Assembly: GCA_903828235.1 (NCBI GenBank)
Contig: CAIKLM010000148.1
Span: 5,903 to 69,902, forward strand
Source: an uncultured beta proteobacterium
Lineage (GTDB): Bacteria; Pseudomonadota; Gammaproteobacteria; Burkholderiales; Burkholderiaceae_C
DNA: 64,000 nt
Reading direction: 5' to 3'
Shown: one piece after another, positions 1 through 26,512 of the stretch
Position numbering within the stretch: position 1 is the stretch's first letter
Layout of the letters: the number at the start of each line of letters is the position of its first letter
Position numbers and translations under genes: made by a program
The notes under the pieces: generated by a model
Told to the model about the DNA's origin: nothing
Database searches by the model: none
What the model saw: only the letters and a program-made list of their open reading frames with translations

Positions 1-660
1 GATGCCGCGCTGGCGGCCACCGCGCGCGAACTGCCCGTGGTGGTGACCGGCCGCTCGCTCAGGGCTCCGGGCTTGGTGGCGCTGGACTTCGACAACTTCC
101 AGGGCGCGCGGCTGGCCACGCAGCACCTGCTGGCGCTGGGGCACCGGCGCATCGGTTTCATCTGCGGCGACCTCAAGCACCCCGACGGCAAGGAGCGCCT
201 GCGCGGCCACCGCTCGGCGCTCGCCGACGCCGGCATCCGCGCCGAGCCGGCGCTGGAGCTGCCGGGCAACTTCACCGAGGCCAGCGGCCTGGCGGCCGCC
301 GAGCGGCTGATCGACAGCGGCGAGGCGTTCACGGCGCTGTTCGCATCGAATGACCAGATGGCCTTCGGGGCTGCTCTGGCCCTGCACCGGCGGCGGCTGC
401 GCGTCCCCGACGACGTGTCGCTCGTGGGCTTCGACGATGTTGCTGGCTCGGTGTACTGCGTGCCGCCGCTGACTACCGTGCACCACCCGGTTCACGAGCT
501 CGGCGAGCTGGCGGCCCGCGCGATGCTGCAGCTGCTGGCCGGCGAGATGCCGACGCTGGCGCTGCCCGCGCCGCGCCTGATGGTGCGCGAGAGCACGCGC
601 GAGCCGCGCAGCCCGCGGGCGCGACCGCAGCGCGACCCCGCGGCGCCGTTTCCGAGGTAA
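1..660 (+). CDS. LacI-family transcriptional regulator (5' truncated; ligand-binding domain)
   Basis: Frame is open from base 1 (DAALAATARELPVVV...). Typical LacI C-terminal motifs: DNFQGARLATQHLLALGHRRIGFI, FASNDQMAFG, VPDDVSLVGFDD, PPLTTV. The HTH lies outside the window. Confidence 0.92.
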   Translation, partial: DAALAATARELPVVVTGRSLRAPGLVALDFDNFQGARLATQHLLALGHRRIGFICGDLKHPDGKERLRGHRSALADAGIRAEPALELPGNFTEASGLAAAERLIDSGEAFTALFASNDQMAFGAALALHRRRLRVPDDVSLVGFDDVAGSVYCVPPLTTVHHPVHELGELAARAMLQLLAGEMPTLALPAPRLMVRESTREPRSPRARPQRDPAAPFPR

Positions 661-695: not shown

Positions 696-711
696 GTGAA
701 AGCGCTTTCAA
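695..711. promoter_or_regulatory. LacI-type operator 1 (TGTGAAAGCGCTTTCAA)
   Basis: Perfect 14-bp palindrome TGAAAGCGCTTTCA (697-710) with a central CG, typical of LacI-family sites. Lies between lacI and the GH1 gene. Confidence 0.88.
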
Positions 712-786: not shown

Positions 787-2175
787 ATGAACCCACCCCC
801 GTCGCGGTACCCGAGCCACCCCTTCGCCGCCGACTTCGTGTGGGGCGTGGCCACCAGCGCGTTCCAGATCGAGGGCGCCGCCACGGCCGACGGCAAGGGC
901 GAGTCGATCTGGGACCGCTTCTGCCGCCAGCCCGGCGCCATCGCGGACGGCAGCCACGGCGACGTGGCCTGCGACCACTACCACCGGCTCGAGGCCGACC
1001 TCGACCTGATCGCCGACCTGGGGGTGGATGCCTACCGCTTCTCGGTCAGCTGGCCGCGCGTGCAGCCCGCCGGCCAGGGCGCCTTCAACGAGGCCGGGCT
1101 GGCCTTCTACGGGCGCCTGATCGACGGACTCGCGGCGCGGGGCATCAAGCCCTACCTGACGCTCAACCACTGGGACCTGCCGCAGGCGCTGCAGGACCAG
1201 GGCGGCTGGGCCCGGCGCGACACCGTGCACCGCTTCGTGGACTACGCGCGCCACGTGGCGGCACGCCTGGGCGACCGCGTCGCCGCGATCACCACCCACA
1301 ACGAGCCCTGGGTGATGGCCGTGCTGGGGCACGAGAGCGGCCTCTTCGCGCCCGGCATCCGCCACCGGGGCACGGCCATGCAGGTGGCGCACCACCTGCT
1401 GCTGAGCCACGGACTGGCGCTGCGGGCGCTGCGCGCCGACGCCTGCCCCGCGCGCCTGGGCATCGTGCTGAACCTCTCGCCCATCGGGCCGGCGACCGAC
1501 AGCCCCGAGGACGCGGCCGCCGCGCGCCTGGAGGACGGCCGCTGCGTGCGCTGGTACATGGACCCGCTGTTCCGCGGCCAGTACCCGGCCGACGTCTGGC
1601 AGCACCTGGGCGCCGACGTGCCGCTGGTGCACGAGGGCGACATGGCCGCCATCGCCACGCCCATGGACTTCCTGGGCATCAACTACTACACGCGCGGCGT
1701 CGTCAGCGCCAGCGGCACCTGGAGCGCGCAGCACGGCGGCAAGCCGCTCACCGACATGGGCTGGGAGATCGTTCCCGAGGGCCTGACCGAGCTGCTGCTG
1801 CGCCTGCACCGCGAGTGGCGGCCGCCGGCGCTGTACGTGATGGAAAACGGCGCCGCCTTCCAGGACACGCTGGAGCACACGCCCGAAGGCCCGCGCGTGC
1901 ACGATGCCGACCGGGTGGACTACATCGCGCGCCACATCGGAGCCCTGGACGATGCCGTCGCGCAGGGCGTGCCCGTGGCCGGCTACATGGTCTGGAGCCT
2001 GATGGACAACTTCGAGTGGGCCAGCGGCTACGCCAAGCGCTTCGGCATCGTGCACACCGACTACGCGACGCTGGCGCGCACGCCCAAGGACAGCTACCTC
2101 TGGTACCGCGGCTTCCTGAGGCTGCAGGCGCAGCGCCGCGCGCAGGCCGCGCAGGCCCAGGTCCCCGTGCCCTGA
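787..2175 (+). CDS. bglA: GH1 beta-glucosidase
   Basis: FVWGVATSAFQIEG, DHYHR, YRFSVSWPR, catalytic THNEP and VMENG motifs, WSLMDNFEWASGYAKRFG. No signal peptide. Confidence 0.95.
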   Translation: MNPPPSRYPSHPFAADFVWGVATSAFQIEGAATADGKGESIWDRFCRQPGAIADGSHGDVACDHYHRLEADLDLIADLGVDAYRFSVSWPRVQPAGQGAFNEAGLAFYGRLIDGLAARGIKPYLTLNHWDLPQALQDQGGWARRDTVHRFVDYARHVAARLGDRVAAITTHNEPWVMAVLGHESGLFAPGIRHRGTAMQVAHHLLLSHGLALRALRADACPARLGIVLNLSPIGPATDSPEDAAAARLEDGRCVRWYMDPLFRGQYPADVWQHLGADVPLVHEGDMAAIATPMDFLGINYYTRGVVSASGTWSAQHGGKPLTDMGWEIVPEGLTELLLRLHREWRPPALYVMENGAAFQDTLEHTPEGPRVHDADRVDYIARHIGALDDAVAQGVPVAGYMVWSLMDNFEWASGYAKRFGIVHTDYATLARTPKDSYLWYRGFLRLQAQRRAQAAQAQVPVP

Positions 2176-2226: not shown

Positions 2227-3699
2227 TCAGGCCCCGTCCTCGTCGCCCTTGGTGTGGTGCAGCAGCAGGCCCACCTGCGCCACGCGCCGGCCGTCCATGC
2301 CGCGCACCGCGAAGTGCGCGTGGCCCCAGTCGATGCCGTCGCCGGCCACCGGCGGCCGGCGCAGCTCGCGGGCCATCCACTCGGCCACGTCGCCGTAGAA
2401 GCCGGGGTCGGGCAGGCCGTAGAAGCCGCAGATGTCGCGCACCGGCACGCCGGGGTCGAGCGCGAAGTCGCCGAACACCTCGCGCACGGCCGGCTCGTCC
2501 TGCGCGTCGGGCAGGTTCACGTTGAACAGGCGTGCCGCCCACACCATGGTGGAGCCCTGCAGCACCAGCGAGGCCAGCACCACCACGAAGGCCACGTCGA
2601 ACAGCACGCGCGCCTGGGGCACGGCCAGCATGAGCGGGATCAGCGCCAGCACCACGGGCACCGCGCCGCGCAGGCCCACCCACGAGATGAAGCCGATCTC
2701 CTGCCACGAGAAGCGCAGCGGCTTCAGGCACAGCGCCACGGCCAGGGGCCGCGCCACGAACATCAGCGCCAGGGCCACGGCCAGCGTGGGCAGCCAGTTG
2801 TCGAGCAGGCGGCTGGGCGTGACGAGCAGGCCCAGCAGCAGGAACATCAGCGCCTGCGCCAGCCAGGCGAAGCCGTCCATGCCGGCCAGCGCGCGCTCGA
2901 CCACCTCGCCGGCACGGTGGGCGACCACCAGGCCGAACAGGTAGACGGCCAGGAAGCCCGAGCCGCCGACCCAGCCGGCGCCCCCGAACACGCCGATGCC
3001 GGCGGCCAGCAGCAGCAGCGCGGTCAGGCCCTCGGCCGTGCCGCCCAGGGGCAGCCGCTTGAGCAGCTCGCCCACGCCCATGCCGGCGAGCACGCCGATC
3101 AGCGTGCCCAGCACGGCCTGCTGGCCGAACATCCACAGCATGGCCCAGGGCGTGGCCGCCGCCGGCTGCAGCAGCGCCGCCGACAGCGTGAGCACCAGGA
3201 ACACGGCCATGGGGTCGTTGAGGCCGGACTCGATCTCCAGCGTCGACGACAGGCGCTCGCTGACGCGCAGGCCCGAGCTCTTGAGCAGCGCGAACACCGC
3301 CGCCGCGTCGGTGGAGCCGACGATGGCCCCGGCCAGCAGCCCCAGCAGCGGCGGCAGCCCGAAGGCCAGGCTGGCGGCCAGCCCCGTGAGCGCGGCCGTC
3401 ACCAGCACGCCGACGGTGGCCAGCCACGAGGCCGGCTTCAGGCCGGTGCGGAAGGTGGACAGGCGGGTGCGCAGGCCGCCGTCGAGCAGGATCACGCCGA
3501 GCGCCGCGCTGCCCACCCACAGCGACAGCTTGACGTCGTTGAAGGCGATGCCGCCCGGGCCGTCCTCGCCCGCCAGCATGCCCATCACCAGGAACACGAG
3601 CAGGAAGGACAGGCCGGCGCGGGCCGAGTACAGCCCGGCCAGCACGCTGGCGAACACCAGCAGCCCGGTGACGCCGAACGCGAGGTTCATCAGGTCCAT
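2227..3699 (-). CDS. cvrA: potassium/proton antiporter (CPA1, NhaP2/CvrA type)
   Basis: GMLAGEDGPGGIAF, STDAAAVF, LEIESGLNDPMAVFL, WVGLRGAVPVVLA, multiple TM helices, CorC-like C-terminus. Confidence 0.9.
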   Translation of the reverse strand: MDLMNLAFGVTGLLVFASVLAGLYSARAGLSFLLVFLVMGMLAGEDGPGGIAFNDVKLSLWVGSAALGVILLDGGLRTRLSTFRTGLKPASWLATVGVLVTAALTGLAASLAFGLPPLLGLLAGAIVGSTDAAAVFALLKSSGLRVSERLSSTLEIESGLNDPMAVFLVLTLSAALLQPAAATPWAMLWMFGQQAVLGTLIGVLAGMGVGELLKRLPLGGTAEGLTALLLLAAGIGVFGGAGWVGGSGFLAVYLFGLVVAHRAGEVVERALAGMDGFAWLAQALMFLLLGLLVTPSRLLDNWLPTLAVALALMFVARPLAVALCLKPLRFSWQEIGFISWVGLRGAVPVVLALIPLMLAVPQARVLFDVAFVVVLASLVLQGSTMVWAARLFNVNLPDAQDEPAVREVFGDFALDPGVPVRDICGFYGLPDPGFYGDVAEWMARELRRPPVAGDGIDWGHAHFAVRGMDGRRVAQVGLLLHHTKGDEDGA

Positions 3700-3781
3700 G
3701 GCGTCGAACCTGGTGTGTGGCGGTACGGGGCGGGCATGGCGCGGATTGTCGCCGCCGCCCGATTGCCCTCGTGGCCGGAGC

Positions 3782-3799
3782 CCGGGCCCCGGGGCCCGG
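3782..3799. terminator. GC-rich palindrome downstream of the MFS gene (possible terminator)
   Basis: Perfect 18-bp palindrome CCGGGCCCCGGGGCCCGG, 22 bp past the MFS stop. No clear U-tract. Confidence 0.4.
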
Positions 3800-3820
3800 A
3801 CGCCAGTGGGTGGGGGCGCC

Positions 3821-5248
3821 CTAGCCGCGGCCGGCCGCCAGGCCCCGACGGCGCTCGAGCTCGGCGCGCACCTCGGCGGCGCGCTGCTCGTCGAGGTCGT
3901 AGCGGCGCATGATCCACATCGCCAGCAGCGTGCCGATGATGGGCACGCCCGAGTAGAACAGGCGCAGGCCGTCCACGGCGCCCTCGGGCTGCACCGCCGC
4001 CCCCGGCGTGAAGGCCACGAAGGACAGGATGGCCCCGCTCAGCAGCCCCGCGATGGCGAAGCCGAACTTCACCATCCACCAGTAGATGGCGCCGAAGATG
4101 CCCTCGCGGCGCTTGCCGGTGGCCAGCTCGTCGAGGTCGCACACGTCGGCCGTCATGCTCATCATCAGCGTGAACAGCCCGCCGATGCCGAAGCTGAAGA
4201 AGGGCAGCGCGATCATGAACAGCCACGGCTGCCCCGGCACCATCAGCAGCCACAGCAGCACGTAGCCGATGACCGAGACGCCCTGGGAGATCATGAACGC
4301 GTTGCGCTTGCCGATCCGCCGGGACATCCAGGCCACCGAGGGGATGACGGCGAAGGTGGTGATCAGCGCCCCCACGCTGCCGAACAGCGTCGGCCAGATT
4401 CCGGCCGCCTGCGCGTTGCCGCCGAACAGGTGGTAGACGACGATGAAGAACGAGAACGCCGCCACCGTGTTGAAGGCGTTGAAGATGAAGAAGGTGGCGA
4501 AGCACAGCTTGCGGAAGGGCGGCGAGCCGAAGGCCTCCTTGAAGCCGGCGACGATCTCGCGCAGGCCGCCGCCGAGGTTGGCCCAGGTCAGCGGCACCAG
4601 CTGCTCGTCGTCGCGCGTGGAGCGGCCGGGCAGGAAGAGGGCCGGCACCATCGCCAGCAGCATGCACGCCACGCCCACCCAGACCGACAAGGTGCGCGTG
4701 GCGGTGTCGGCGTTCGGGAACCAGGCCGGGTCGTACATCACCACCCAGAACCAGGGCGCGATCACCCAGGCCCACTGCCCGATCCACTGCGCCACGGCCA
4801 TGATGCCGGTGCGCTCGTGGAAGTCGTCGCTCATCTCGTAGCCCATGGCCACGTACGGCACGCTGAACAGCGTGAGCCCCGTGTAGAAGACGAAGCTCCA
4901 GCACAGGAAGTACACGAAGTTGTAGGCGATGCCGTCGCTGCGCTGCAGCTGCCACATGGCCACGAAGCTGATGCCCATGACGATGGCGCCGACGAACACG
5001 TACTGCCGCCGCCGGCCCCAGCGCGAGCGCGTGTTGTCGGAGATGAACCCCATGATGGGGTCGGTCAGCGAGTCGTACACGCGCGGCAGGAAGAACAGGA
5101 TCCCCCACATCCAGCCCGGGAAGCCCAGGTCCTGCACCAGCACGACCATGAAGATGCCCAGCGCCGCCGGGAACATCTGGTTGGCCAGCATGCCCAGGCC
5201 GAAGGCCACCTTGTGGCCGAAGGGGACTGCCGCCCCCTTGCTCATCAT
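3821..5248 (-). CDS. MFS sugar transporter, glycoside-pentoside-hexuronide (GPH/MelB-like) family
   Basis: 475 aa from MMSKGAAVPFGHKVAFG. DSLTDPIMGFISDNTRSRWGRRR, YVAMGYEMSDDFHERT, DLDELATGKRREGIF. ATGA overlap with the upstream GH17-like gene. The long ORF-track call 3821..7039 is an over-extension. Confidence 0.9.
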   Translation of the reverse strand: MMSKGAAVPFGHKVAFGLGMLANQMFPAALGIFMVVLVQDLGFPGWMWGILFFLPRVYDSLTDPIMGFISDNTRSRWGRRRQYVFVGAIVMGISFVAMWQLQRSDGIAYNFVYFLCWSFVFYTGLTLFSVPYVAMGYEMSDDFHERTGIMAVAQWIGQWAWVIAPWFWVVMYDPAWFPNADTATRTLSVWVGVACMLLAMVPALFLPGRSTRDDEQLVPLTWANLGGGLREIVAGFKEAFGSPPFRKLCFATFFIFNAFNTVAAFSFFIVVYHLFGGNAQAAGIWPTLFGSVGALITTFAVIPSVAWMSRRIGKRNAFMISQGVSVIGYVLLWLLMVPGQPWLFMIALPFFSFGIGGLFTLMMSMTADVCDLDELATGKRREGIFGAIYWWMVKFGFAIAGLLSGAILSFVAFTPGAAVQPEGAVDGLRLFYSGVPIIGTLLAMWIMRRYDLDEQRAAEVRAELERRRGLAAGRG

Positions 5249-6984
5249 CGCGTCCAGTGCAGGTTGTCGATGCGCAGCAGCGGCAGGCCCGTCAGGTTCG
5301 GCGGCTTGCCGGTGAAGCTGTAGCGGTCGGCGATGATGAAGCGGAAGTTCACGAAGCGCAGGTCGAGCCTGGGGTTGGCGGCCACGAAGGCCGAGATCGG
5401 GATCGACACCTCGCACCAGCTGTTGGTGTTGCAGTAGCCGTACTGGCCGGGCGCGATCTGCAGGAAGGCTTCCTGCACGTCGCGGTCCTCGGTGTCTGTG
5501 CTGATGCCGACCTCGATCTTGCCGGGGTAGCCGTCGCTGCGCACCAGGAAGTTCAGGCGGCCGCCGGCAAAGTTGCTCAGGTTGGCCAGCACGCCGGTGC
5601 CGGAGTACCGGAACAGGCCCCAGCCGTAGTCCACCGGGTTGGGCGAAACCTCCAGGTGCACGCCACCGTCGGCCGAGGGCGCGCCGGCGCTGCTCTCGCG
5701 GTAGCCGGTGGTGGCGAACGGGTCCCAGCGCAGGCCGGTGGCGCGTTCCTCGCCGGCCACGGCGGCGTCGGCGAACAGCGTGTAGCGGCTGGCCGTGACG
5801 GCGGCGGCCAGCGTCGGCGGCACCCACTTCACGGCGTCGGCCTCGGTGTAGCTGCCGGGCTCGCAGGCCCAGGTCTGGCCGCAGGTGCCCAGGCCCTGCA
5901 CCACGTAGCGCGCCTGGCGGCTGGCGTTGAACAGGCCCCAGCCGTCGTCGCCCTGCTTCCAGGGCTCGTCGAAGGCCTGGAAGAAGAAGACCGCCTTCGG
6001 GCCCTGCGGGTCGCGCCGGCCCTGCTGCGCCCACAGCTGCATCGCGTCGAAGTACATCTTCTGGTTCACGGGGTGGGCGCGGAAGGCCAGGGTGGGCCCG
6101 CCGTTGGTGTCGACCGCGGCCCAGCCCGTCTCGCCCACGACCATCGGGATGGTGCTCAGGCCCAGCTTGGCCAGGCCGGCGCGGGCCGCCTCGAACTGTT
6201 TCCTCGCCTCGGCGACGCTGGCGTCGATCATCGCGCGGGCGCGCTGCGCCTCGGGCACGGACTTCTGCCGCCAGTCGTAGCGCGTGGGGTCGTAGAAGGT
6301 GTCGAGGAAGGGGTACACGTGCACGGCCGCGAAGTCCACCGTCTCGGCCACCGAGCGCGGCACCTTCGACCACATCAGCCAGTTGTCGTTCGTGGTGACG
6401 GGCTGTCGCACCGCGGCGCGCACCTTGCGCAGGTAGCCGGCCATGACCTCGGGGGCGATCTGGGCGGTGGACCACTCCACGAGCTTCTCGTTGCCGACGC
6501 TGACGGCGAGCACGATCTCGGGGTAGGCGTTGGCCAGCCGGATGCAGGCGTCGAGCTCGGCCTGGTTGTCGGCCTCGGCGGCGGCCCCGGTCACCGGGTT
6601 GGGAAACGCGCCGAGCTGCACCTTCAGGTCCAGGCCGTTGTCGCGGATGACCTGCAGCACCGTCTCGGCGAAGCCGCGGCTGCTGAACAGGCGGATGGTG
6701 CCGATGCCCGTGGCCTGCACCAGGCGCAGATCCTGCAGCACGTTGGCCGGCGTGATCACCTCGCTGGCCAGGTCGGCCGGCCCGCGCGAGGTGCGGAAGG
6801 GCGAGTAGTTGACGGCCGCCCGCGTGAGCAGGGCCTGCGGCAGCTCGCGCCGGTCGGAGGCCTGCGACACGGCGCCGGGCGTGTAGCCGCCACCGCCGCA
6901 ACCGGCCAGGCCGGTGGTCAGCGCCACCGCGAACGCGCAGGCCAGGGCGCTGCGCGGCAGCAGGAAAAGCCGGTTGGACATCAT
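5245..6984 (-). CDS. GH17-like beta-1,3-glucanase lipoprotein with C-terminal CBM-like domain
   Basis: 579 aa. Lipobox LAGC-GGGG. VNYSPFR, IRLFS, VSVGNEK (acid/base), VHVYPF, VGETGW (nucleophile), FQAFDEPWK. Aromatic-rich beta-sandwich-like tail. Confidence 0.8.
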   Translation of the reverse strand: MMSNRLFLLPRSALACAFAVALTTGLAGCGGGGYTPGAVSQASDRRELPQALLTRAAVNYSPFRTSRGPADLASEVITPANVLQDLRLVQATGIGTIRLFSSRGFAETVLQVIRDNGLDLKVQLGAFPNPVTGAAAEADNQAELDACIRLANAYPEIVLAVSVGNEKLVEWSTAQIAPEVMAGYLRKVRAAVRQPVTTNDNWLMWSKVPRSVAETVDFAAVHVYPFLDTFYDPTRYDWRQKSVPEAQRARAMIDASVAEARKQFEAARAGLAKLGLSTIPMVVGETGWAAVDTNGGPTLAFRAHPVNQKMYFDAMQLWAQQGRRDPQGPKAVFFFQAFDEPWKQGDDGWGLFNASRQARYVVQGLGTCGQTWACEPGSYTEADAVKWVPPTLAAAVTASRYTLFADAAVAGEERATGLRWDPFATTGYRESSAGAPSADGGVHLEVSPNPVDYGWGLFRYSGTGVLANLSNFAGGRLNFLVRSDGYPGKIEVGISTDTEDRDVQEAFLQIAPGQYGYCNTNSWCEVSIPISAFVAANPRLDLRFVNFRFIIADRYSFTGKPPNLTGLPLLRIDNLHWTR

Positions 6985-6998
6985 GGAGGACCTCGGAC

Positions 6999-8354
6999 TC
7001 AGAACCGGTAGTTCGCTTCGAGCGACACCCAGTTGCCACGGTTGGCCACGCGGGAGTCGACGTTCGAGAAGGCGTCGTGGGCGGGCATGCTCAGCGGCGC
7101 CAGACCCTTGCGGCGGTACCACACCGCGTTGACCGAGCCCAGGACGCTGAGCCCGCGGCCCACGTCGTAGCGCGCGCCCAGGCTGGCGAAGGTCGCCGAG
7201 TTGCCCTGGCCGCGCTCGCTGGGGTTGTCGGTGCTGGCGCGGCCCAGGTAGGTCAGGCCGGCGAAGGCCGCCAGCCTGGGGTTCACGTACTTGCGCGCCC
7301 CCAGCATGAAGTCGGTGGAGCGCGCCGGGTAGCCCGGGTTGCGCACGCCCCGGGCATCGACGCCGTTCCAGTCGACGTTGAAGGGCGTGTTCCATTGCGC
7401 CAGCGGGCCGTCGGTCAACGGCACCGCGTAGGCGCCGCTCCAGCGGTTGAAGCGCAGGCCGCCGGAGAGCTCGTAGGCGGTGCCGATCTGGTACTTGGCC
7501 AGCAGCATGAACACGCCCTGGCTGCTGCCCCCGAGCCGGGCGTCGTCGCGCTCGGCGTAGGGCGTCAGGCCGGTGAAGCCGGCCTTGGCGAAGGCCGCCG
7601 GGGCGCCGTTGCGCGCCAACTGCGCCACCGCCTCGACCAGCAGCGGGCCGCGGCCCCACAGCGCCCACAGCTCGATCAGCTCGGGCTTGTTGCGCTTGAA
7701 GGCCGTGTCGCCCTGGTCGTAGGTGGCCTCGAGCACCAAGTTGCCCTCGGCCACGAACAGCTCGCGCGAGGTGTAGCGCACGGCCGTGGTCAGGATGCCG
7801 TAGGCCGCGCCGGAATCGGAGAACGCGGTCTGGCCGATGTCGGAGGCGTAGGGGAAGTCGGGCCGGTTCCAGGCCCGGGACGGGAAGTTGCCGATCGAGA
7901 CGCTGCCGTAGTACTCGTGCGCCAGCGTGGCGCTGCGCTCGTACACCACGCCGGGCAGGTCGGGCTTGCCGTCGCGGTAGCGCTGCGAGTAGGCCGCCGA
8001 GGCCTTGAAGCCGCCCGGTAGGTCGAACCGGACGCCCAGCGTGGGCTGGATCTGCACGCTGTCGGTGGTCAGGCCGCCGTAGGCCTTGCCGAACACGACG
8101 TCGTCGGCCCAGACGAAGTGGCGGTTGGTGTCGGGCTCGCGCTGGCAGCCCTTGCAGCCGTTGCTGACGTGGGTCACGCTGGCCTTGGCGAAGCCGGTCA
8201 GCGTGAACGGTCCCCACTCGAAGGCCTGCGCCAGCGGGCTCGAGCCCAGCCCGGCCAGGCACAGCGCGAAGGCCGGCAGCCGGCGGACCGGCCGCGTGCG
8301 GCGCTCGGCGAGGCGGGATCGCGGTTCCCGGGGACGGGAGGGTGTGTGCTGCAT
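6999..8354 (-). CDS. outer-membrane porin-like beta-barrel protein
   Basis: 451 aa from MQHTPS. Signal peptide ending AQA. Alternating amphipathic strands (LGVRFDL, VRYTS, LGARYDV) and C-terminal ...EANYRF with terminal Phe. Confidence 0.75.
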   Translation of the reverse strand: MQHTPSRPREPRSRLAERRTRPVRRLPAFALCLAGLGSSPLAQAFEWGPFTLTGFAKASVTHVSNGCKGCQREPDTNRHFVWADDVVFGKAYGGLTTDSVQIQPTLGVRFDLPGGFKASAAYSQRYRDGKPDLPGVVYERSATLAHEYYGSVSIGNFPSRAWNRPDFPYASDIGQTAFSDSGAAYGILTTAVRYTSRELFVAEGNLVLEATYDQGDTAFKRNKPELIELWALWGRGPLLVEAVAQLARNGAPAAFAKAGFTGLTPYAERDDARLGGSSQGVFMLLAKYQIGTAYELSGGLRFNRWSGAYAVPLTDGPLAQWNTPFNVDWNGVDARGVRNPGYPARSTDFMLGARKYVNPRLAAFAGLTYLGRASTDNPSERGQGNSATFASLGARYDVGRGLSVLGSVNAVWYRRKGLAPLSMPAHDAFSNVDSRVANRGNWVSLEANYRF

Positions 8355-8385
8355 GGCTCGGGCCGCCTCGGGCTGGTGGTTGGCG

Positions 8386-8402
8386 TTGAAAGCGCTTTCA
8401 CA
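8386..8402. promoter_or_regulatory. LacI-type operator 2 (TTGAAAGCGCTTTCACA)
   Basis: Same 17-mer as operator 1 in reverse orientation, 32 bp upstream of the porin ATG. On the minus strand TTGACG (8431-8426), 18 bp, TATTCT (8407-8402) abuts it. Confidence 0.88.
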
Positions 8403-8513
8403 GAATACGGGTGGCGCAGGCTGCGCGTCAACGCATGGGCGCTGCGTGTTTACCCTCCCGTCGGGGCCGGGTGCCGGCGGCGGGCTGCGGCTGCGGGTAA
8501 ACGCGGGCATGAG

Positions 8514-8530
8514 TTGAAAGCGCTTTCACA
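8514..8530. promoter_or_regulatory. LacI-type operator 3 (TTGAAAGCGCTTTCACA)
   Basis: Identical 17-mer, 43 bp upstream of the GH81 ATG. Confidence 0.88.
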
Positions 8531-8573
8531 AAGAATGGCCTGCCACCATGTTGCGCACCCACCGGGGAAGCCG

Positions 8574-10910
8574 ATGAGCGTCGTCCACACCCTCCGCCAG
8601 GCCCGTCCGTCGGGCCGGGCCGCCCTGCGGGCGAAGGCCCTGGCGTTGGCGGGCACCGCGCTGGCGCTGCTGGCGCTGGCCGCGCCCGCCCTGGCGCAGC
8701 CGGTGAAGCTGGGCGAGGGCGCCTACCTGCTGACGCCCAGGCCCGGCGACAAGGCCGTGCCGCGTGCGCCGTTCCGCACCGAGGCCATGCTGAAGCGGGC
8801 GGCGCCCACCAACCAGTGGTATTCGACGCTGGCCTTCAGCGCAAAGCCCGAAGCGCTGTTCGTGCAGCCGATCACCGTGAAGACCACGCCGGCGGGCCTG
8901 GAGTTCGCGTTGCCGTCCAAGGAGGCCGTCACCAGTGTGCGGCAGGACGTGGAGATCCGCTACCCGCACCGCGACCCGCTGCTCATCAGCCCGGTGGCCT
9001 TCGAGCCCGGTGCCGCCAGGCTGGCCAACGCCGACGACTGGTCGATCGACATCTCCATGGCGCGCGGTGGCGACGAGATGCTCGCCACGGTGGCGCGCGG
9101 CCACCCCTACGCGTCGATCCGCGTCAACCGCGGCGACCTGCGCGTGCGGCTGCCCTCGGCCGGGCAACGCCTGCACGAGGGGGCCGATGCGCGCGTCGTC
9201 GCGCTCAAGGTGGGCGGCAAGACCTACGCGCTGTTCGGCCCCACCGGCGTGGCCTGGGAGTCCGCGTCGCCCACCGAGTGGACCGCACGGCTGCCGGCGG
9301 GCCGCGGCTACCTGTCGGTGGCGGCGCTGCCCGACGACAAGCCCGAGACGCTGGCCCTGTTCACGCGCCACGCCTATGCCTTCATCCGGCAGACGCGCGT
9401 GGAGTGGCGCTACGACGAGGCGGCCAGCCGCGTCGAGACCACCTTCCGGGCCCGCACCGAGGTGATGGAGGGCCCCGACCACGGGCCGCTGCTGGGCCTG
9501 TACCCGCACCACTGGTTCCGCAACGCGTCGGTGCAGGGCCGGCTCGGGCCCGCCTTCGACACCGTGCGCGGCCCGCTGCGGCTGCTGGCGGCGGCAGAGT
9601 TCACCACGACGACCACCTTCAACGGCTTCGTGCCCTTCTGGCCCGCGGCCACCGATGCCGCCCGCCTGCCGCAGCTGCGGGAGGTGATGGACCGGGACTT
9701 CGCCACCGCCAGCCGCGAACTGCAGCGCCAGGGCCGCAGCGCCTACTGGGCCGGCAAGGGCCTGCAGCGCACCATGAAGCTGGCCGAGGTCTTCGAGCAG
9801 CAGGGCGACCTGGCCCGCCGCGACCGCCTGATCGACATGGTGAAGAAGCGCGCCGAGGAGTGGCTGGGCGGCCAGAGCAGCCGCGGCTACGTGCAGCGCG
9901 ACGAGGCCATGGGCCTGGTGTCGATCTACCCCGACGAGTTCTTCGCGGTGGCCGAGATCAACGACCACCACTTCTGGTTCGGCTACTGGATCCGCTCCGC
10001 CGCCGAGGTGGCGCTGCGCGACCCGGCCTGGATCGCCCGGGAGCGCTGGGGCGGGATGTTCGAGCTGCTCATCGCCGACATCGCCACCACCGAGCGCGGG
10101 CGCGCCGACTTCCCGTTCCTGCGCAACTGGGACGCCTACGAGGGCCACACCTGGGCCAACGGCATCGGGGCGGGCGAGTTCGGCAACAACAACGAGTCCT
10201 CGTCGGAGTCGATCAACGCCTGGACCGGCCTCATCCTGTGGGGCGAGATCACGGGCAACAGGGCCCTGCGCGACCTGGGCGTCTACCTCTACGCCAGCGA
10301 GATCGAGGCCATCAACCACTACTGGTTCGACATCCACGGCCAAGTGTTCGCGCCCGAGTATCGCAACGCCGAGGTCAGCCTGGTCTTCGGCGGCATGTAC
10401 CGCCACGACACCTGGTGGATCGACGATCCGCGGCAGATCAAGGGCATCAACCTGCTGCCGGTGACCACCGCCCACACCTACCTGGGGCGCGATCCGGCCT
10501 TCGTGAAGCGCAGCCTGGCCACGCTGCCGGCCGAGACCGAGCTGTGGAACCGCATCGCCAGGAAGCCGGACCCGCCGCCGCCCAAGGACATCTGGCAGGA
10601 CATCTTCGCCATGTACCTGGCCCTGGCCGATCCGGCCGAGGCGCTGAAGACCTGGGACCGCTGGGGCTCGGTGGAGCTGGGCTCGTCGCGCAGCTTCACG
10701 CTGCACTTCATGCTCGGCCTGGAGGCCATGGGCCTGCCGGACTTCGGCATCACCGCCGACACGCCGCTGCACGCCGTGTTCCGGCGAGCCGACGGCCGCC
10801 GCACCTACCTGGCCTTCAACGCCCGCCCGGCGCCGCTGGAGGTGCGGTTCAGCGACGGCCGGCGCCTGGTGGTGCCGCCCGGCCAGCTGGGCCGCCTGAC
10901 CGTGCCCTGA
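8574..10910 (+). CDS. GH81 endo-1,3-beta-glucanase, secreted
   Basis: 778 aa from MSVVHTLRQ. Sec signal ending PALA-Q. PTNQWYS, NDHHFWFGYW, EGHTWANG and NNESSSESINAW match GH81 catalytic motifs. Confidence 0.88.
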   Translation: MSVVHTLRQARPSGRAALRAKALALAGTALALLALAAPALAQPVKLGEGAYLLTPRPGDKAVPRAPFRTEAMLKRAAPTNQWYSTLAFSAKPEALFVQPITVKTTPAGLEFALPSKEAVTSVRQDVEIRYPHRDPLLISPVAFEPGAARLANADDWSIDISMARGGDEMLATVARGHPYASIRVNRGDLRVRLPSAGQRLHEGADARVVALKVGGKTYALFGPTGVAWESASPTEWTARLPAGRGYLSVAALPDDKPETLALFTRHAYAFIRQTRVEWRYDEAASRVETTFRARTEVMEGPDHGPLLGLYPHHWFRNASVQGRLGPAFDTVRGPLRLLAAAEFTTTTTFNGFVPFWPAATDAARLPQLREVMDRDFATASRELQRQGRSAYWAGKGLQRTMKLAEVFEQQGDLARRDRLIDMVKKRAEEWLGGQSSRGYVQRDEAMGLVSIYPDEFFAVAEINDHHFWFGYWIRSAAEVALRDPAWIARERWGGMFELLIADIATTERGRADFPFLRNWDAYEGHTWANGIGAGEFGNNNESSSESINAWTGLILWGEITGNRALRDLGVYLYASEIEAINHYWFDIHGQVFAPEYRNAEVSLVFGGMYRHDTWWIDDPRQIKGINLLPVTTAHTYLGRDPAFVKRSLATLPAETELWNRIARKPDPPPPKDIWQDIFAMYLALADPAEALKTWDRWGSVELGSSRSFTLHFMLGLEAMGLPDFGITADTPLHAVFRRADGRRTYLAFNARPAPLEVRFSDGRRLVVPPGQLGRLTVP

Positions 10911-10970: not shown

Positions 10971-11018
10971 TTGCCAACGAGCCCGCATCGTCCCGATACT
11001 GTTGAAAGCGCTTTCACA
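10971..11018 (+). promoter_or_regulatory. promoter plus LacI-type operator 4 (TTGAAAGCGCTTTCACA at 11002-11018)
   Basis: TTGCCA (10971-10976), 18 bp, GATACT (10995-11000), then the identical 17-mer operator. GAGGA SD precedes ATG 11077. Confidence 0.85.
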
Positions 11019-11076: not shown

Positions 11077-13164
11077 ATGACCACCCCACAGCATCGTCCC
11101 CCCTTGGCCGCCCTCGCGGCGGCGGTGTTCGCGCTCTCGCTGGCCGCCTGCGGGGGCGGTGGCGGCGAGGCGCCGCCCGATCGGCCCGGCAGCGTCGTCG
11201 CGCCGGCCGCGCCGGTGGTGACCATCACCAACAACGTCGCGGCCGAGACGGCCACGGGCCCGATCACCTTCACCTTCTCGTTCAACCGCGACGTCGGCAC
11301 CTCGTTCACGGCCGACGACGTGATGGTGACGGGCGGCACCAAGGGCACGTTCACGCGCCTGTCGGGCACCGGCGCCACGCTGGTGGTGGCGCCGACGCCC
11401 AACGCCACCGGCACGGTGCAGGTGTCGGTGGGCGCCGGCAGCGTGACCGACGCCACCGGCACGGGCAACGCCGCGGTCACGGCCGCCAAGGCCTTCGACA
11501 CCGTGCCGCCCCCGCCACCGGCGACCGGCAACGTCGTGCTGGCCAACTTCGACGACGTGCGCCCAACGGTGGCGGGCTTCGAGGGCGCCGAGGGCAGCGC
11601 CATCGAAGCCGGGCCGGCCGGCGGCGGCTCGGGCAACAGCTTCAAGGTGCTGCGCTCGGGCGGCCAGGCCTACGCCCTGGGCATCGTCGAGACGGCCGTG
11701 CCGGTGACGGCGACGCGCCGCACGATCAGCGCGCAGGTCTACTCGCCGCTGGCGGGCATTCCGATGGTCATGAAGATCGAGGGCCCGGGCGGTGCCAACT
11801 CGGGCGACGTGTCGGCCAACGAGGCCGTGGTCGTGGGCTGGCAGACGCTGACCTGGACCTTCTCCGGCGTGAACCCCGCGCAGACCTTCAACAAGATCGT
11901 GCTGCTGCCGCGCCTGGGCACGGTCGACGCTCCGCCGGGGCGCGCCTACTTCTTCGACGGCATGACGCTGGTCGAGAACGCGTCGCTGCTCGGCGGCACC
12001 GTGCTGGCCAACTTCGACGACGTGCGCCCGCCGGTGGCGGGCTTCGAGGGCGCCGAGGGCAGCGCCATCGAGGCCGGGCCGGCCGGCGGCGGCTCGGGCA
12101 ACAGCTTCAAGGTGCTGCGCTCGGGCGGCCAGGCCTACGCCCTGGGCATCGTCGAGACGGCCGTGCCGGTGACGGCGACGCGGCGCACGATCAGCGCGCA
12201 GGTCTACTCGCCGCTGGCGGGCATCCCGATGGTGATGAAGATCGAGGGCCCGGGCGGGGCCAACTCGGGCGACGTGTCGGCCAACGAGGCCGTGGTCGTG
12301 GGTTGGCAGACCCTGACCTGGACCTTCTCCGGCGTGAACCCCGCGCAGACCTTCAACAAGATCGTGCTGCTGCCGCGCCTGGGCACGGTCGACGCACCGC
12401 CGGGGCGCGCCTACTACTTCGACGGCATCACGCTGCTGCCGGCGGCCACGGGCGGGGGCGGTGCCGCGGCGCTGACCTTCTCCACCGGCTTTGCCACGGG
12501 CAACCGCACCGTGGAGGGCGGCGAGTTCGGCGGCTTCAGCGGCAGCAACTTCGACGGCTTCAACTGCGACGGCAACCCCGCCAACTGCGGTGCCGGCGGC
12601 GAGTTCGCGCCGGCGCTCGCGGCGGCCGACAGCTACTTCTTCTACTACTACCAGACGCCCAGCCCGGCCACGGCCATGTACATGGGCATCTTCGTGCAGG
12701 CGCCCGGCGTGGTGGGGGGCTTCAGCCCCTCGGCCGACACCCCCGGCGTGCAGGTGGGCTCGCAGACGACGCTGCGCTTCAAGCTGGGGCAGAACGCCGA
12801 GTGGTTCGGCTCGGCGACCAACAACTTCATGATCGTCATGGACCTCGGCAAGCGCTTCACCGCCGGTGGCGGCACCTGCCGGCTGCAGCTGCGCAGGGTG
12901 GTCACGCCCACGGCCCAGGCCGCCAGCAGCTACGCGATCCCCCTGAACTCGTTCGCCCTGGTGCAGGACTGCGCCGGTGCCGCCACCTCGGTGGCCCAGG
13001 CGCTGGCCGTCTCGCCGATCTCGCAGATCTCGTTCCAGGGCGTGGGCGGCAGCAACGAGCTGTCGGACGGCGCGCGCACCAGCGGAGCCAACCGCAGCGT
13101 GCCCAACGGCGACGGGCGCTACCCGACGACGGTGGTGCTGCAGGGCGGCATCACGATCGACTGA
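11077..13164 (+). CDS. multidomain lipoprotein: Ig-like domain, two tandem CBM-like modules, Cys-containing C-terminal domain
   Basis: 695 aa. Lipobox LAAC-GGGGG. Ig-like segment (PVVTITNN...ITFTFSF...VSVGAGSVTD), Pro linker, two 155-aa repeats, and a C-terminal domain with four Cys. No catalytic motif recognised. Confidence 0.75.
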   Translation: MTTPQHRPPLAALAAAVFALSLAACGGGGGEAPPDRPGSVVAPAAPVVTITNNVAAETATGPITFTFSFNRDVGTSFTADDVMVTGGTKGTFTRLSGTGATLVVAPTPNATGTVQVSVGAGSVTDATGTGNAAVTAAKAFDTVPPPPPATGNVVLANFDDVRPTVAGFEGAEGSAIEAGPAGGGSGNSFKVLRSGGQAYALGIVETAVPVTATRRTISAQVYSPLAGIPMVMKIEGPGGANSGDVSANEAVVVGWQTLTWTFSGVNPAQTFNKIVLLPRLGTVDAPPGRAYFFDGMTLVENASLLGGTVLANFDDVRPPVAGFEGAEGSAIEAGPAGGGSGNSFKVLRSGGQAYALGIVETAVPVTATRRTISAQVYSPLAGIPMVMKIEGPGGANSGDVSANEAVVVGWQTLTWTFSGVNPAQTFNKIVLLPRLGTVDAPPGRAYYFDGITLLPAATGGGGAAALTFSTGFATGNRTVEGGEFGGFSGSNFDGFNCDGNPANCGAGGEFAPALAAADSYFFYYYQTPSPATAMYMGIFVQAPGVVGGFSPSADTPGVQVGSQTTLRFKLGQNAEWFGSATNNFMIVMDLGKRFTAGGGTCRLQLRRVVTPTAQAASSYAIPLNSFALVQDCAGAATSVAQALAVSPISQISFQGVGGSNELSDGARTSGANRSVPNGDGRYPTTVVLQGGITID
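11536..12435 (+). repeat. intragenic direct repeat, 2 x 435 bp (11536-11970 and 12001-12435), period 465 bp
   Basis: Manual alignment gives 12 mismatches in 435 bp: 9 synonymous, 3 non-synonymous (T/P, F/Y, M/I). Confidence 0.95.
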
Positions 13165-18236: not shown

Positions 18237-18328
18237 GGGAGCGGGACGACTCCCGCGGTTTATCGGCGCGGGCGCCACGCCCTTGAGGCCCCTGAGGGCC
18301 GCCGGGCTGGGCTGCGCCCGCCCCCGCC

Positions 18329-26123: not shown

Positions 26124-26512
26124 TGCGGGATGGGGCTGTTCTCGCGAAGGCCCGGGGTTTGCGGGTGGGGAGCACATGCCTGCGCGCCTGAGCGCTGCGA
26201 GGCAAAGCCCGCGATTATAGGCAGGATTGCGGCAACCAGCGTGTTTCCAGATCGTGCCCGAGCGCTGGCGCCACAGGCAGGCGGGACGGCGCGCGCACAG
26301 GGCCGGCGGCGGGCCGCATCACCGGCTGCGGGCCGCACCACATCTGGCGCGGCTTTTGTCCACAGTTCTGCCCCAGCACGGCCGCTCCGGAGGACAAAAT
26401 CGGCATTGGCCTTGTCGGCCTGGTCAAGCACCCGCATCATGAAAGGCGCGGTGCGGCCGGCGGGCTCGGTTGCATGGATTCCGTCGCCCTTCGCCCATCG
26501 CCTGGACACCGC

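Follow-up and report, generated by a model that had tools for sequence, protein, structure and literature searches.

The 64,000-nt window analysed here (positions 5,903 to 69,902 of contig CAIKLM010000148.1, from an uncultured beta proteobacterium) carries near its start a group of genes that together appear to serve the breakdown of beta-1,3-glucan (Table 1). A predicted outer-membrane protein, here called the porin, is encoded next to a GH17-like lipoprotein and an MFS-type sugar symporter and diverges from a GH81 endo-beta-1,3-glucanase; a lipoprotein with carbohydrate-binding-module (CBM) repeats, a GH1 beta-glucosidase and part of a LacI-family regulator lie nearby. The GH17-like gene starts 14 nt past the porin stop codon, with GGAGG ahead of its start, the symporter gene begins directly after the GH17 stop, and a scan from 3600 to 8700 returned nothing resembling a terminator, all of which agrees with an earlier note on this DNA that made the porin the first gene of a porin-GH17-MFS operon. 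The CBM-repeat lipoprotein was modelled by AF2 with pLDDT 84, and Foldseek matched it to a CBM22 tandem, CBM11, CBM4 and Bacteroides thetaiotaomicron SGBP-B; its relatives carry Big_12, and it is a probable glucan-binding protein. Neither the loci with Pfam-matched neighbours nor the scanned neighbours in the window had a second annotated outer-membrane transporter.

Table 1. Positions in the window of the porin gene, its sequence features, its putative control sites and the neighbouring genes
Feature	Position	Strand	Description
LacI-family regulator, C-terminal ligand-binding part	1..660	plus	Peripla_BP_3 2.6e-36, Peripla_BP_1 3.3e-17; gene cut by window start
Fourth operator copy	697..710		Just upstream of GH1 gene
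GH1 beta-glucosidase	787..2175	plus	No signal peptide noted; Pfam GH1 3.6e-153, TIGR03356 2.5e-182
MFS_2/GPH-family sugar:cation symporter	3821..5248	minus	Third operon gene; Pfam MFS_2 3e-68, TIGR00792 2e-56
GH17-like lipoprotein	5245..6984	minus	Second operon gene; 579 aa, lipobox LAGC; Pfam GH17 29.9 bits vs 28.2 cutoff; PDB 6fcg (GH17) E 2.7e-21
Porin gene	6999..8354	minus	ATG at 8354, stop codon ending at 6999, 451 codons; unnamed family
Porin loop L3, SRAWNRPDFPYASDIGQTAFSDSGAAYG	7797..7880	minus	Residues 159-186; 28 residues between strands 5 and 6; putative constriction loop
CKGC (C67, C70)	8145..8156	minus	Residues 67-70, start of external loop L1
Signal peptide	8223..8354	minus	Residues 1-44; long Arg-rich n-region, hydrophobic core, cleavage site between AQA and FE; read from sequence
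Operator TGAAAGCGCTTTCA, porin operon	8387..8400		Exact 14-bp LacI-type palindrome, 32 nt upstream of ATG
Promoter-like site	8402..8431	minus	-35 TTGACG, 18-nt spacer, -10 TATTCT; ends 1 nt before operator
Second operator copy, divergent GH81 gene	8515..8528		Exact palindrome
GH81 endo-beta-1,3-glucanase	8574..10910	plus	Divergent from porin; type I signal peptide; Glyco_hydro81C 2.2e-44; PDB 6fop 2.7e-154, BH0236 about 1e-94
Third operator copy	11003..11016		Upstream of CBM-repeat lipoprotein gene
CBM-repeat lipoprotein	11077..13164	plus	695 aa, lipobox LAAC; Ig-like domain, two near-identical beta-sandwich repeats, C-terminal beta-sandwich

Spurious long open reading frames are numerous across the window, in every frame. 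The porin gene is not among them, since its GC content by codon position (0.65/0.54/0.97, with GC3 thus at 0.97 in a 71% GC genome) follows the pattern of a real gene. A longer, 503-aa reading frame starting at 8510 was rejected, as it would pass through the promoter-like site as well as the operator, and as the homologues, 445-452 aa in length, align at Met1 of the shorter frame. The N-terminus reads MQHTPSRPREPRSRLAERRTRPVRRLPAFALCLAGLGSSPLAQA and, after the predicted cleavage site, FEWGP; the signal is of the Sec type and has no lipobox. AF2 places a helix at residues 25-35 and gives residues 1-42 low pLDDT, and the length of the N-terminal region is conserved among homologues in an alignment of 50 sequences. 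The stretch VRRLPAF might hint at Tat export, a route considered unlikely for an outer-membrane barrel, and we judge it unlikely here. At the other end the chain closes with LEANYRF; the terminal Phe, the C-terminal aromatic signal for insertion by BAM, is kept in 154 of 155 family members. Both cysteines of CKGC are invariant in the 81 sequences of clade 1, the Burkholderiales branch of the family, while clade-2 members instead have four cysteines located elsewhere in the loops; the CKGC pair probably forms a disulfide that staples the loop. The signal peptide, the cysteine pair and the final Phe of this 451-aa protein are thus all as the earlier note had described them. Its remark on aromatic richness is correct as to number, with 10 W, 20 Y and 22 F in 407 mature residues (12.8%), but such a content is ordinary for outer-membrane barrels and therefore not diagnostic.

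The window holds four exact copies of the putative operator TGAAAGCGCTTTCA, against 0.06 expected by chance, and the copy ahead of the porin gene directly follows the -10-like box of a putative promoter (a consensus scan returned one site, with 0.2 expected), a placement that supports the direct operator control proposed from the sequence beforehand. The arrangement recurs in related loci, where an operator stands upstream of the porin gene in 79 of 80 genome loci, two copies per divergent intergenic region are the rule, and full LacI genes are present. Near-identical fragments of the porin gene also occur in environmental metatranscriptome assemblies, with DNA carry-over possible; these contigs are short (for example 8004-8215, 7334-7483, 7549-7699 and 7419-7603) and too sparse to speak to co-transcription or induction.

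The AF2 model (pLDDT 73, pTM 0.76) predicts 16 antiparallel strands joined by periplasmic turns of 2-5 residues and by long external loops of up to 38 residues, and Foldseek returned as its best matches the 16-stranded trimeric porins BpsOmp38, Omp32 and VhChiP, with E about 1e-19. The barrel that had been suspected from the amphipathic sequence is therefore borne out by the model, on which the fold is the ordinary 16-stranded general-porin architecture and not a novel barrel. Because non-specific general porins have the same fold, the fold is no argument for specificity, and the idea of a sugar porin rests, as with the Vibrio chitoporin, on context and conservation.

By sequence, the protein is as unclassified as first supposed. 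No Pfam or NCBIfam model matched it at E<=0.1, and searches of PDB sequences with phmmer and with a family profile gave only chance-level matches (E 0.03-0.5, to an acyl-CoA dehydrogenase and to cytochromes c). Among 50 relatives, one matched Porin_4 (PF13609; 1.7e-8) and 22 had the generic OMP_b-brl model as their sole, weak match; one distant family member scored 19.7 bits, below the cutoff of 27. The families that the earlier note had failed to recognise in the sequence are also set aside here: LamB/ScrY (PF02264), on 16 rather than 18 strands, the lack of a PF02264 match and the 45th rank of ScrY (1oh2) at TM 0.46; OprB (PF04966), for want of a match in Pfam or NCBIfam; and TonB-dependent receptors, for want of a Plug or TonB_dep_Rec match in a protein with about 407 mature residues and 16 strands, as against a plug and a 22-stranded barrel. 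KdgM and CymA likewise gave no Pfam match to the porin. A total of 787 homologues were found, and the family makes up 117 clusters at 50% identity among 1.84 billion; public records label its members "hypothetical protein", and our literature search found no description of the family and no paper containing both 'GH81' and 'porin'. On this modelled structure, the protein is a member of an unnamed family of outer-membrane pores.

The genomic surroundings of this family are strikingly constant in content, if not in order. In clade 1, the porin gene is followed directly by a GH17 gene in 76 of 78 loci, a divergent GH81 gene stands upstream of it in 78 of 79, and a CBM-repeat lipoprotein gene was found in 70 of 80. 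Clade 2, whose porins are 25-32% identical to the one in the window and include, as relatives of the clade-2 query protein, sequences from Steroidobacteraceae and Gammaproteobacteria MAGs, has a co-directional GH81 gene directly downstream in 64 of 65 loci and a CBM-like lipoprotein gene directly upstream in 23 of 61. Other branches show the orders SBP-permease-permease-GH1-PORIN-ABC ATPase, SBP-permease-permease-GH1-ATPase-GH30-PORIN-GH81-GH16-glucokinase and LacI-unknown-PORIN-GH16-GH16-SBP-permease-permease-GH1, as well as PORIN-GH17 and a divergent GH81-PORIN pair beside LacI, glucokinase, ABC and GH1 genes. The linkage to glycoside hydrolase genes, whose absence was to count against the original proposal, thus occurs (as GH81, GH17, GH16, GH30 or GH1) at practically all loci in all the branches studied, even where identity falls to about 26% and where the gene order differs. 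The porin also evolves about as slowly as the adjoining enzymes, with 47-79% identity between porins and 52-85% between the GH81 proteins. Its carriers are widespread freshwater Burkholderiales (relatives of Rubrivivax, Limnohabitans, Ideonella, Leptothrix, Aquabacterium and Polaromonas), and, the family being bound to beta-1,3-glucan loci, it is probably the outer-membrane route for breakdown fragments in these bacteria. Carriers that can be cultivated include Piscinibacterium candidicorallinum LMG 29480, Rubrivivax albus ICH-3, Leptothrix discophora CCM 2812 and Limnohabitans planktonicus II-D5.

The same surroundings bear on the direction of transport. An outward role, in which the porin would export beta-glucan or help release glucanases, could draw on the adjacent GH17 or GH81 genes, given that GH17 domains also occur in NdvB-type cyclic-glucan synthases. 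The other partners, however, are catabolic (GH1, GH16, GH30, glucokinase, sugar importers and a LacI repressor), and the pore of a 16-stranded porin is too narrow for folded enzymes. No glycosyltransferase was present in any locus examined, for which reason we reject a reading in terms of glucan synthesis or export, and we hold an outward role of either kind to be extremely improbable.

Sequence conservation within the family points to the loops and the lumen. When regions of the porin are compared with one another inside the family itself, the external loops of clade 1 are the most conserved (entropy 0.96), ahead of the strands (1.23) and the turns (1.40); L2, which in trimeric general porins is a latching loop, is conserved (0.87), and L3, L7 and L8 are the best-conserved loops across both clades. 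Within L3, the residues R160, W162, D166, G174, G182, A183 and G186 are at least 90% identical in both clades. L1, L3 and L8, on which any specificity would depend, were modelled with pLDDT below 50, and L3 is for that reason placed inside the barrel by analogy. Putative lumen-facing strand positions, assigned by a hydrophobicity heuristic, are better conserved than outer-facing ones (entropy 1.09 vs 1.38), with strands 11 and 12 almost invariant on the lumen side, and both clades conserve 17 aromatic positions, including W162, Y169, F178, Y185, W305 and F325. A trimer interface sought by conservation was not seen, the outer face of strands 1-5 and 16 having an entropy of 1.45 against 1.34 for the other strands.

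These patterns have to be weighed against the simplest alternative, a non-specific general diffusion porin co-induced with the regulon, which would raise permeability for glucose and laminaribiose without a saturable site. Such a porin would have the fold observed here, common to Omp32, BpsOmp38 and OmpF; the weak Porin_4 or OMP_b-brl matches in a few relatives fit it as well, and the sequence keeps a porin-like charge pattern, with basic, invariant, lumen-facing K57, R193, R301 and R354 and with acidic D166, D172 and D180 in L3. In general porins, though, the external loops are typically the most variable part and the genes are not tied to one catabolic locus, whereas in this family conservation peaks in the loops and beta-1,3-glucan genes adjoin the porin almost without exception. 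A specialised function also agrees better with so small a family than a housekeeping function does, and on balance we regard the general-diffusion reading as rather unlikely.

The closest structural matches, with TM to target of 0.72-0.78, are the Burkholderiales general porins Omp32 of Delftia acidovorans (1e54, 2fgq) and BpsOmp38 (8jto, 8wv0), both of the Porin_4 family, which have in common with the present protein the bacterial order, the 16 strands and the terminal Phe. The mature protein described here is nevertheless about 75 residues longer (about 407 vs about 330), with the additional residues in L1, L5, L6 and L8; its Porin_4 score stays under the threshold, its loops show conservation where those of the general porins vary, and its gene is locked to a glycan locus. 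A functional parallel is offered by VhChiP (PDB 5mdo/5mdq), the OmpC-like, 16-stranded, trimeric chitoporin of Vibrio, which is specific for chitooligosaccharides (PMC13578368). Both proteins have the same architecture (Foldseek E 1e-18, TM 0.71) and a long L3, both are encoded in and co-regulated with a catabolic system for a single polysaccharide, and both have as their presumed job the passage of oligosaccharides released by secreted endo-enzymes. They differ in sequence (about 12% identity in the structural alignment, with no relationship detectable by phmmer or the family profile), in their polysaccharide (probably beta-1,3-glucan here, chitin in Vibrio), in the invariant CxxC of L1 found here, and in regulation, by a LacI repressor here and by ChiS there. 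Unlike VhChiP, the present porin also has no room for an N-terminal plug, as strand 1 begins within about 5 residues of the mature N-terminus. With LamB and ScrY, which are 18-stranded and belong to a different family, the resemblance is one of functional logic, in that an outer-membrane channel dedicated to one substrate shares an operon with the inner-membrane transporter for that substrate. Co-transcription of lamB with malK is an example, and the order GH1-porin-MalK-like ATPase in one branch of the family recalls that pairing.

Taken with the conserved context, these observations lead us to propose that the porin is likely a dedicated, LacI-controlled outer-membrane channel for laminari-oligosaccharides within a beta-1,3-glucan (laminarin-type) regulon, where we infer the substrate, the selectivity and the oligomeric state. 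Without inducer, the LacI-family repressor would sit on its operators at the promoters of porin-GH17-MFS and GH81 and at the CBM-lipoprotein and GH1 genes, to be released by a sugar derived from beta-glucan, probably laminaribiose or a short oligomer. The porin would then be exported by Sec and inserted by BAM as a 16-stranded channel. Glucan would be bound by the CBM-repeat lipoprotein and cut to oligosaccharides by GH81, in the locations we presume for these proteins, and the products would cross the outer membrane through the porin by facilitated diffusion, possibly with saturable specificity, guided by aromatic and polar contacts from the nearly invariant L3, L6, L7 and L8 and from the inner wall. 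The GH17-like lipoprotein could trim the oligosaccharides, the GPH/MFS symporter, or an ABC system in other lineages, would import them, and the presumably cytoplasmic GH1 enzyme would release glucose. Known porins do not usually pass very long chains, and were GH81 periplasmic and not secreted, the channel would have to pass chains much longer than is usual for them.

The conservation of the external loops could also reflect contacts with proteins. One possibility is that the porin is the membrane-embedded centre of a complex at the cell surface, comparable to SusC/SusD but independent of TonB, in which its loops dock the CBM-repeat lipoprotein and/or GH81/GH17 and transport depends on these partners. 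Besides the loops themselves, the frequency of the lipoprotein gene in both clades, the resemblance of its product's fold to CBMs and to a Bacteroides surface glycan-binding protein, and the Gly-rich linkers that follow the lipid-bearing Cys in the sequences of both partner lipoproteins are consistent with such a complex. Substrate binding explains the loop conservation equally well, however, and some branches have no recognisable homologue of the CBM-repeat lipoprotein next to the porin, so that we consider partner-dependent transport decidedly unlikely. The idea nonetheless overlaps with a dedicated channel, since the porin would still be the uptake route. In a bolder form, which we also regard as unlikely, the CBM-repeat lipoprotein would assemble with the porin and with GH81, the GH17 lipoprotein or both, and the resulting surface machine, independent of TonB, would be a porin-built equivalent of the Bacteroidota SusC/D 'utilisome'; as part of this same conjecture, glucan would be captured and cut at the mouth of the pore and long chains threaded through the passive 16-stranded channel, with the nearly invariant loops as docking surface.

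Few algal storage glycans are more abundant than laminarin and chrysolaminarin, and beta-1,3-glucans also derive from fungal walls; what has so far been described of their uptake by bacteria concerns mostly SusC/D and TonB-dependent systems. If the porin is indeed a dedicated laminari-oligosaccharide channel, it would offer a passive, energy-free outer-membrane route for these sugars, give a functional name to what is now a 'hypothetical protein' in some 170 species genomes and to hundreds of proteins from metagenomes, and make its gene a marker of beta-1,3-glucan use in Proteobacteria that have no PUL-style markers. The family would then add a sixth substrate class to the sugar-specific porins, of which LamB, ScrY, CymA, OprB and ChiP have been characterised (PMC13578368), and provide a compact test case for how glycan specificity arises on a general-porin scaffold. 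The laminarin loci of Bacteroidota and marine Gammaproteobacteria, including those of Formosa, resemble those of this porin family in their toolkit of GH16, GH17 and GH30 enzymes (PMC6246565). In contrast to their energised, 22-stranded, plug-containing receptors, the 451-aa protein described here is predicted to be a passive, 16-stranded channel, and no SusD homologue is present. The laminarin-induced porin of Formosa is an unrelated, nitrogen-linked protein (PMC6246565). An MFS-GH17 fusion such as that described for Formosa does, as a separate observation, occur among relatives of the porin loci.

Most likely, the 451-aa protein forms an outer-membrane channel dedicated to beta-1,3-gluco-oligosaccharides and under repressor control; that it serves as the channel for this regulon we consider quite probable, saturable and specific transport being the weaker part of the reading. 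The decisive evidence is genomic context. Scanning one genome per species, we found the protein in 170 stretches and kept 80 loci as clade 1, in which the named organisms are all betaproteobacteria, nearly all labelled Burkholderiales (Rubrivivax, Ideonella, Leptothrix, Aquabacterium, Limnohabitans, Piscinibacter, Hydrogenophaga, Polaromonas, Sphaerotilus), and the porins are 47-79% identical to the window protein. Here a GH17 gene lies directly downstream of the porin on the same strand (76 of 78 loci with sufficient flank), and a GH81 gene lies directly upstream and divergent (78 of 79). The porins of a second branch, clade 2, share no more than 25-32% identity with the window protein, and MAGs of Steroidobacteraceae and Gammaproteobacteria are among the relatives of its query protein; in 64 of 65 of these loci the porin gene is followed directly by GH81 in the same orientation, often with GH17 and a gene resembling that of the window's 695-aa lipoprotein upstream, and with LacI and GH1 near.

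Five further sub-branches, looked up singly, show the layouts GH81<->porin, next to LacI, glucokinase, an ABC transporter and GH1; SBP-permease-permease-GH1-porin-MalK-like ATPase; LacI-unknown-porin-GH16-GH16-SBP-permease-permease-GH1, GH81 being nearby; porin-GH17; and SBP-permease-permease-GH1-ATPase-GH30-porin-GH81-GH16-glucokinase with LacI. In a Piscinibacterium locus we also find GH30, glucokinase, GH17, GH16 and a fusion of MFS with GH17. The GH16/GH17/GH30/GH81/GH1 set is a toolkit for beta-1,3-glucan with beta-1,6 branches; thus, with glycoside hydrolase linkage found in clade 1, clade 2 and all five sub-branches, the porin remains linked to this set in two classes of Proteobacteria. 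Gene order, orientation and even the kind of transporter in the inner membrane, MFS or ABC, vary between loci, and no other outer-membrane transporter is annotated in those whose neighbours carry Pfam hits. An export role for the porin is highly improbable, because every partner is catabolic.

Within the window, the porin opens a tight operon, as the earlier note had claimed: the gene for a GH17-like lipoprotein (lipobox LAGC; matched to the solved GH17 structure 6fcg at 2.7e-21) starts 14 nt downstream behind GGAGG, that for a GPH/MFS symporter begins directly after the GH17 stop, and no terminator-like site was found between 3600 and 8700. The direct operator control that it had also described is supported by four exact copies of the palindrome TGAAAGCGCTTTCA, against 0.06 expected in the window. 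The copy before the porin begins 1 nt past a promoter-like site, a placement after the putative -10 that is classical for LacI-family repression. The motif, allowing ≤2 mismatches, stands upstream of the porin in 79 of 80 genome loci; the remaining one has no upstream DNA. Usually a locus carries two copies between the divergent genes, with a further copy ahead of the lipoprotein gene and another ahead of GH1. The repressor-operator pairing is putative, as is the inducer.

Features of the porin locus and its surroundings in the window, with porin segments by residue
Feature	Position	Strand	Remark
LacI-family regulator gene	left edge of window		3' part only
Operator copy	697		before GH1
GH1 beta-glucosidase gene			in window
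Na+/H+ exchanger gene	2227-3699	-	CorC_HlyC domain; between GH1 and MFS genes
Porin gene	ATG 8354, stop codon end 6999	-	451 codons
CKGC	nt 8145-8156	-	residues 67-70
Operator copy	8387		before porin
Promoter-like -10, TATTCT	8407-8402	-	consensus match only
Promoter-like -35, TTGACG	8431-8426	-	consensus match only
Operator copy	8515		before GH81
GH81 endo-beta-1,3-glucanase gene			divergent from porin; PDB 6fop at 2.7e-154
Operator copy	11003-11016		before 695-aa lipoprotein gene
695-aa lipoprotein gene	11077-13164	+	after GH81
GGDEF-EAL protein	16200-18278	-	few kilobases from locus
GGDEF protein	26192-27514	+	few kilobases from locus
Predicted strands 1-8	50-66, 93-111, 117-123, 139-146, 150-158, 187-195, 199-213, 225-235		AlphaFold2
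Predicted strands 9-16	238-248, 278-290, 294-305, 344-356, 361-375, 385-399, 402-415, 439-450		AlphaFold2
Predicted long external loops	L1 67-92, L3 159-186, L5 249-277, L6 306-343, L8 416-438		AlphaFold2

Because the window is 71% GC, with long ORFs in all frames, we checked the reading frame of the porin; its GC by codon position (0.65/0.54/0.97) is typical of true coding sequence in this genome. A 503-aa ORF from 8510 was rejected, since homologues of 445-452 aa align from Met1 and the extension holds regulatory sites. The N-terminus (MQHTPSRPREPRSRLAERRTRPVRRLPAFALCLAGLGSSPLAQA before FEWGP), with its long Arg-rich n-region and AQA cleavage site, reads as a Sec signal peptide and is not a lipobox; the chain ends in EANYRF. 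The 451-aa gene, signal peptide, CKGC and terminal Phe noticed earlier are therefore all present. The abundance of Trp, Tyr and Phe is also real (12.8% aromatic residues in the mature chain), but does not single the protein out, such content being ordinary in outer-membrane barrels.

An AlphaFold2 model from a 50-sequence alignment (pLDDT 73, pTM 0.76; L1, L3 and L8 at low confidence) bears out the proposed barrel, with 16 strands, periplasmic turns of 2-5 residues and long external loops. Foldseek against the PDB ranks 16-stranded trimeric porins first, with BpsOmp38 (E 1.8e-19), Omp32 (4.7e-19) and the chitooligosaccharide-specific VhChiP (1.0e-18) as the closest apparent structural relatives, V. 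cholerae OmpT and Neisseria PorB also among these first matches and the 18-stranded ScrY far lower (TM 0.46), which argues for a classical general-porin architecture in the predicted barrel. A LamB, OprB or TonB-dependent-receptor fold is rejected, in line with the earlier note, which had recognised no features of these; the protein is not a TonB-dependent receptor, and it fails membership by the Porin_4, LamB and OprB sequence models. Beside this architecture stands the main rival reading, a non-specific porin that is simply co-induced, which we regard as unlikely.

The constraint pattern in an alignment of 155 family members drawn from the loci bears on this question. External loops of general porins are usually their most variable parts; in clade 1, the external loops are better conserved (mean entropy 0.96) than the strands (1.23) and the periplasmic turns (1.40), and with both clades considered L3, L7 and L8 still show the strongest conservation. 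Strand positions assigned to the lumen by a hydrophobicity-phase heuristic are more conserved than outer-facing ones (1.09 against 1.38), and the lumen sides of strands 11 (E295, S297, G299, R301, N303, W305) and 12 (A344, S346, D348, G352, R354) are nearly invariant. At 17 positions both clades retain an aromatic residue. This pattern fits a specific role of loops and wall, either substrate binding or partner docking; that the porin is the docking core of a surface complex, a reading that overlaps with our main one, we consider improbable. C67 and C70 are invariant in 81 of 81 clade 1 porins, whereas those of clade 2 lack the L1 CxxC, most having four Cys at other loop positions, including a pair that is conserved around L6 (CDY...GC); disulfide-stapled loops thus seem to be a family habit, with different loops used in each branch.

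The protein had been called unclassified, and so it is at the sequence level: Pfam and NCBIfam give no match at E≤0.1, and PDB sequences none that is meaningful, whether searched with the single sequence or the family profile. When 1.84 billion cluster representatives were scanned exhaustively with HMMER, only 117 clusters reached E≤1e-3, about 20 of them full-length; one of 50 relatives matches Porin_4, 22 match only the generic OMP_b-brl, weakly, and public records say 'hypothetical protein' or 'predicted porin'. The defining motifs, W162...SGAGYG in L3, NRWSG, FNV.W, (T)DNPSERGQSNSA around L7, KG.AP.SMP in L8 and the terminal Phe, persist down to 26-30% identity. The protein belongs to a compact, unnamed porin family whose substrate class is probably new. 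The recent chitoporin classification names LamB, ScrY, CymA, OprB and ChiP as known sugar porins, with no beta-1,3-glucan porin among them (PMC13578368), and no paper in the library searched contains both 'GH81' and 'porin'.

The sugar-porin interpretation is supported as far as computation reaches. We suggest that GH81 would make oligomers, assisted by the CBM-repeat lipoprotein; these would diffuse through the porin, where L3 and the conserved wall probably form a binding site, to be trimmed by GH17, carried in by the GPH symporter and broken down completely by GH1. The concept of a catabolic operon that includes its own specific porin is familiar: LamB and ChiP are likewise substrate-dedicated porins encoded with their own pathways, and we read the job of this porin as alike. 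The order GH1-porin-MalK-like ATPase, inside an ABC sugar-transporter operon in one sub-branch, recalls malK-lamB of E. coli. The comparison across loci gives unusually clean evidence, and the ecological setting is relevant. Many metagenomes from lakes and fresh water contain DNA identical or nearly so to the locus. The cluster that includes the exact protein has 38 members, those with an organism name coming from Rubrivivax, Burkholderiaceae, Betaproteobacteria and Pseudomonadota MAGs, and a few near-identical metatranscriptome contigs covering parts of the gene hint at expression in the environment.

The 695-aa lipoprotein (lipobox LAAC) is modelled at pLDDT 84 with an Ig-like domain, a pair of near-identical beta-sandwich repeats, each of ~150 aa (roughly residues 153-300 and 308-454), and a C-terminal beta-sandwich; its Foldseek matches (tandem CBM22, CBM11, CBM4, a Bacteroides surface glycan-binding protein) suggest that it is probably glucan-binding. 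Since Foldseek finds CBM-type beta-sandwiches where Pfam CBM models recognise nothing, the repeats may represent a module for binding beta-1,3-glucan that has yet to be described. In relatives, lengths of about 540, 695 and 850 aa apparently go with one, two and three modules. The mechanical ORF begins at TTG 11002, overlapping the operator; ATG 11077 (MTTPQHRPP...LAAC) is the more likely start.

Elsewhere in the window, the scanned genes appear to have ordinary chromosomal functions. Those nearby encode inositol monophosphatase, SpoU methylase, PmbA/TldD peptidase, a TRAP transporter DctM component, an aminotransferase, UvrB and PNPase, and we saw no link of the GGDEF genes or these neighbours to the porin. 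No operator copy was found for the Na+/H+ exchanger gene, although it lies within the footprint of the regulon; in its place relatives have GH30, glucokinase, GH16 or MFS-GH17 fusion genes. Such fusions, described as unusual in laminarin loci of Formosa (PMC6246565), join MFS_2 and GH17 in single proteins of ~784-811 aa (L161 1157-3592; L163 15526-17880) in a Steroidobacteraceae MAG and Piscinibacterium and are therefore not confined to Bacteroidota. Proteins of 500, 651 and 865 aa that adjoin the porin in other branches (L167 6420-7922 and 2849-4804; L161 7354-9951), with no Pfam hit or a sub-threshold GH17 one, may be more uncharacterised binding proteins or glucanases.
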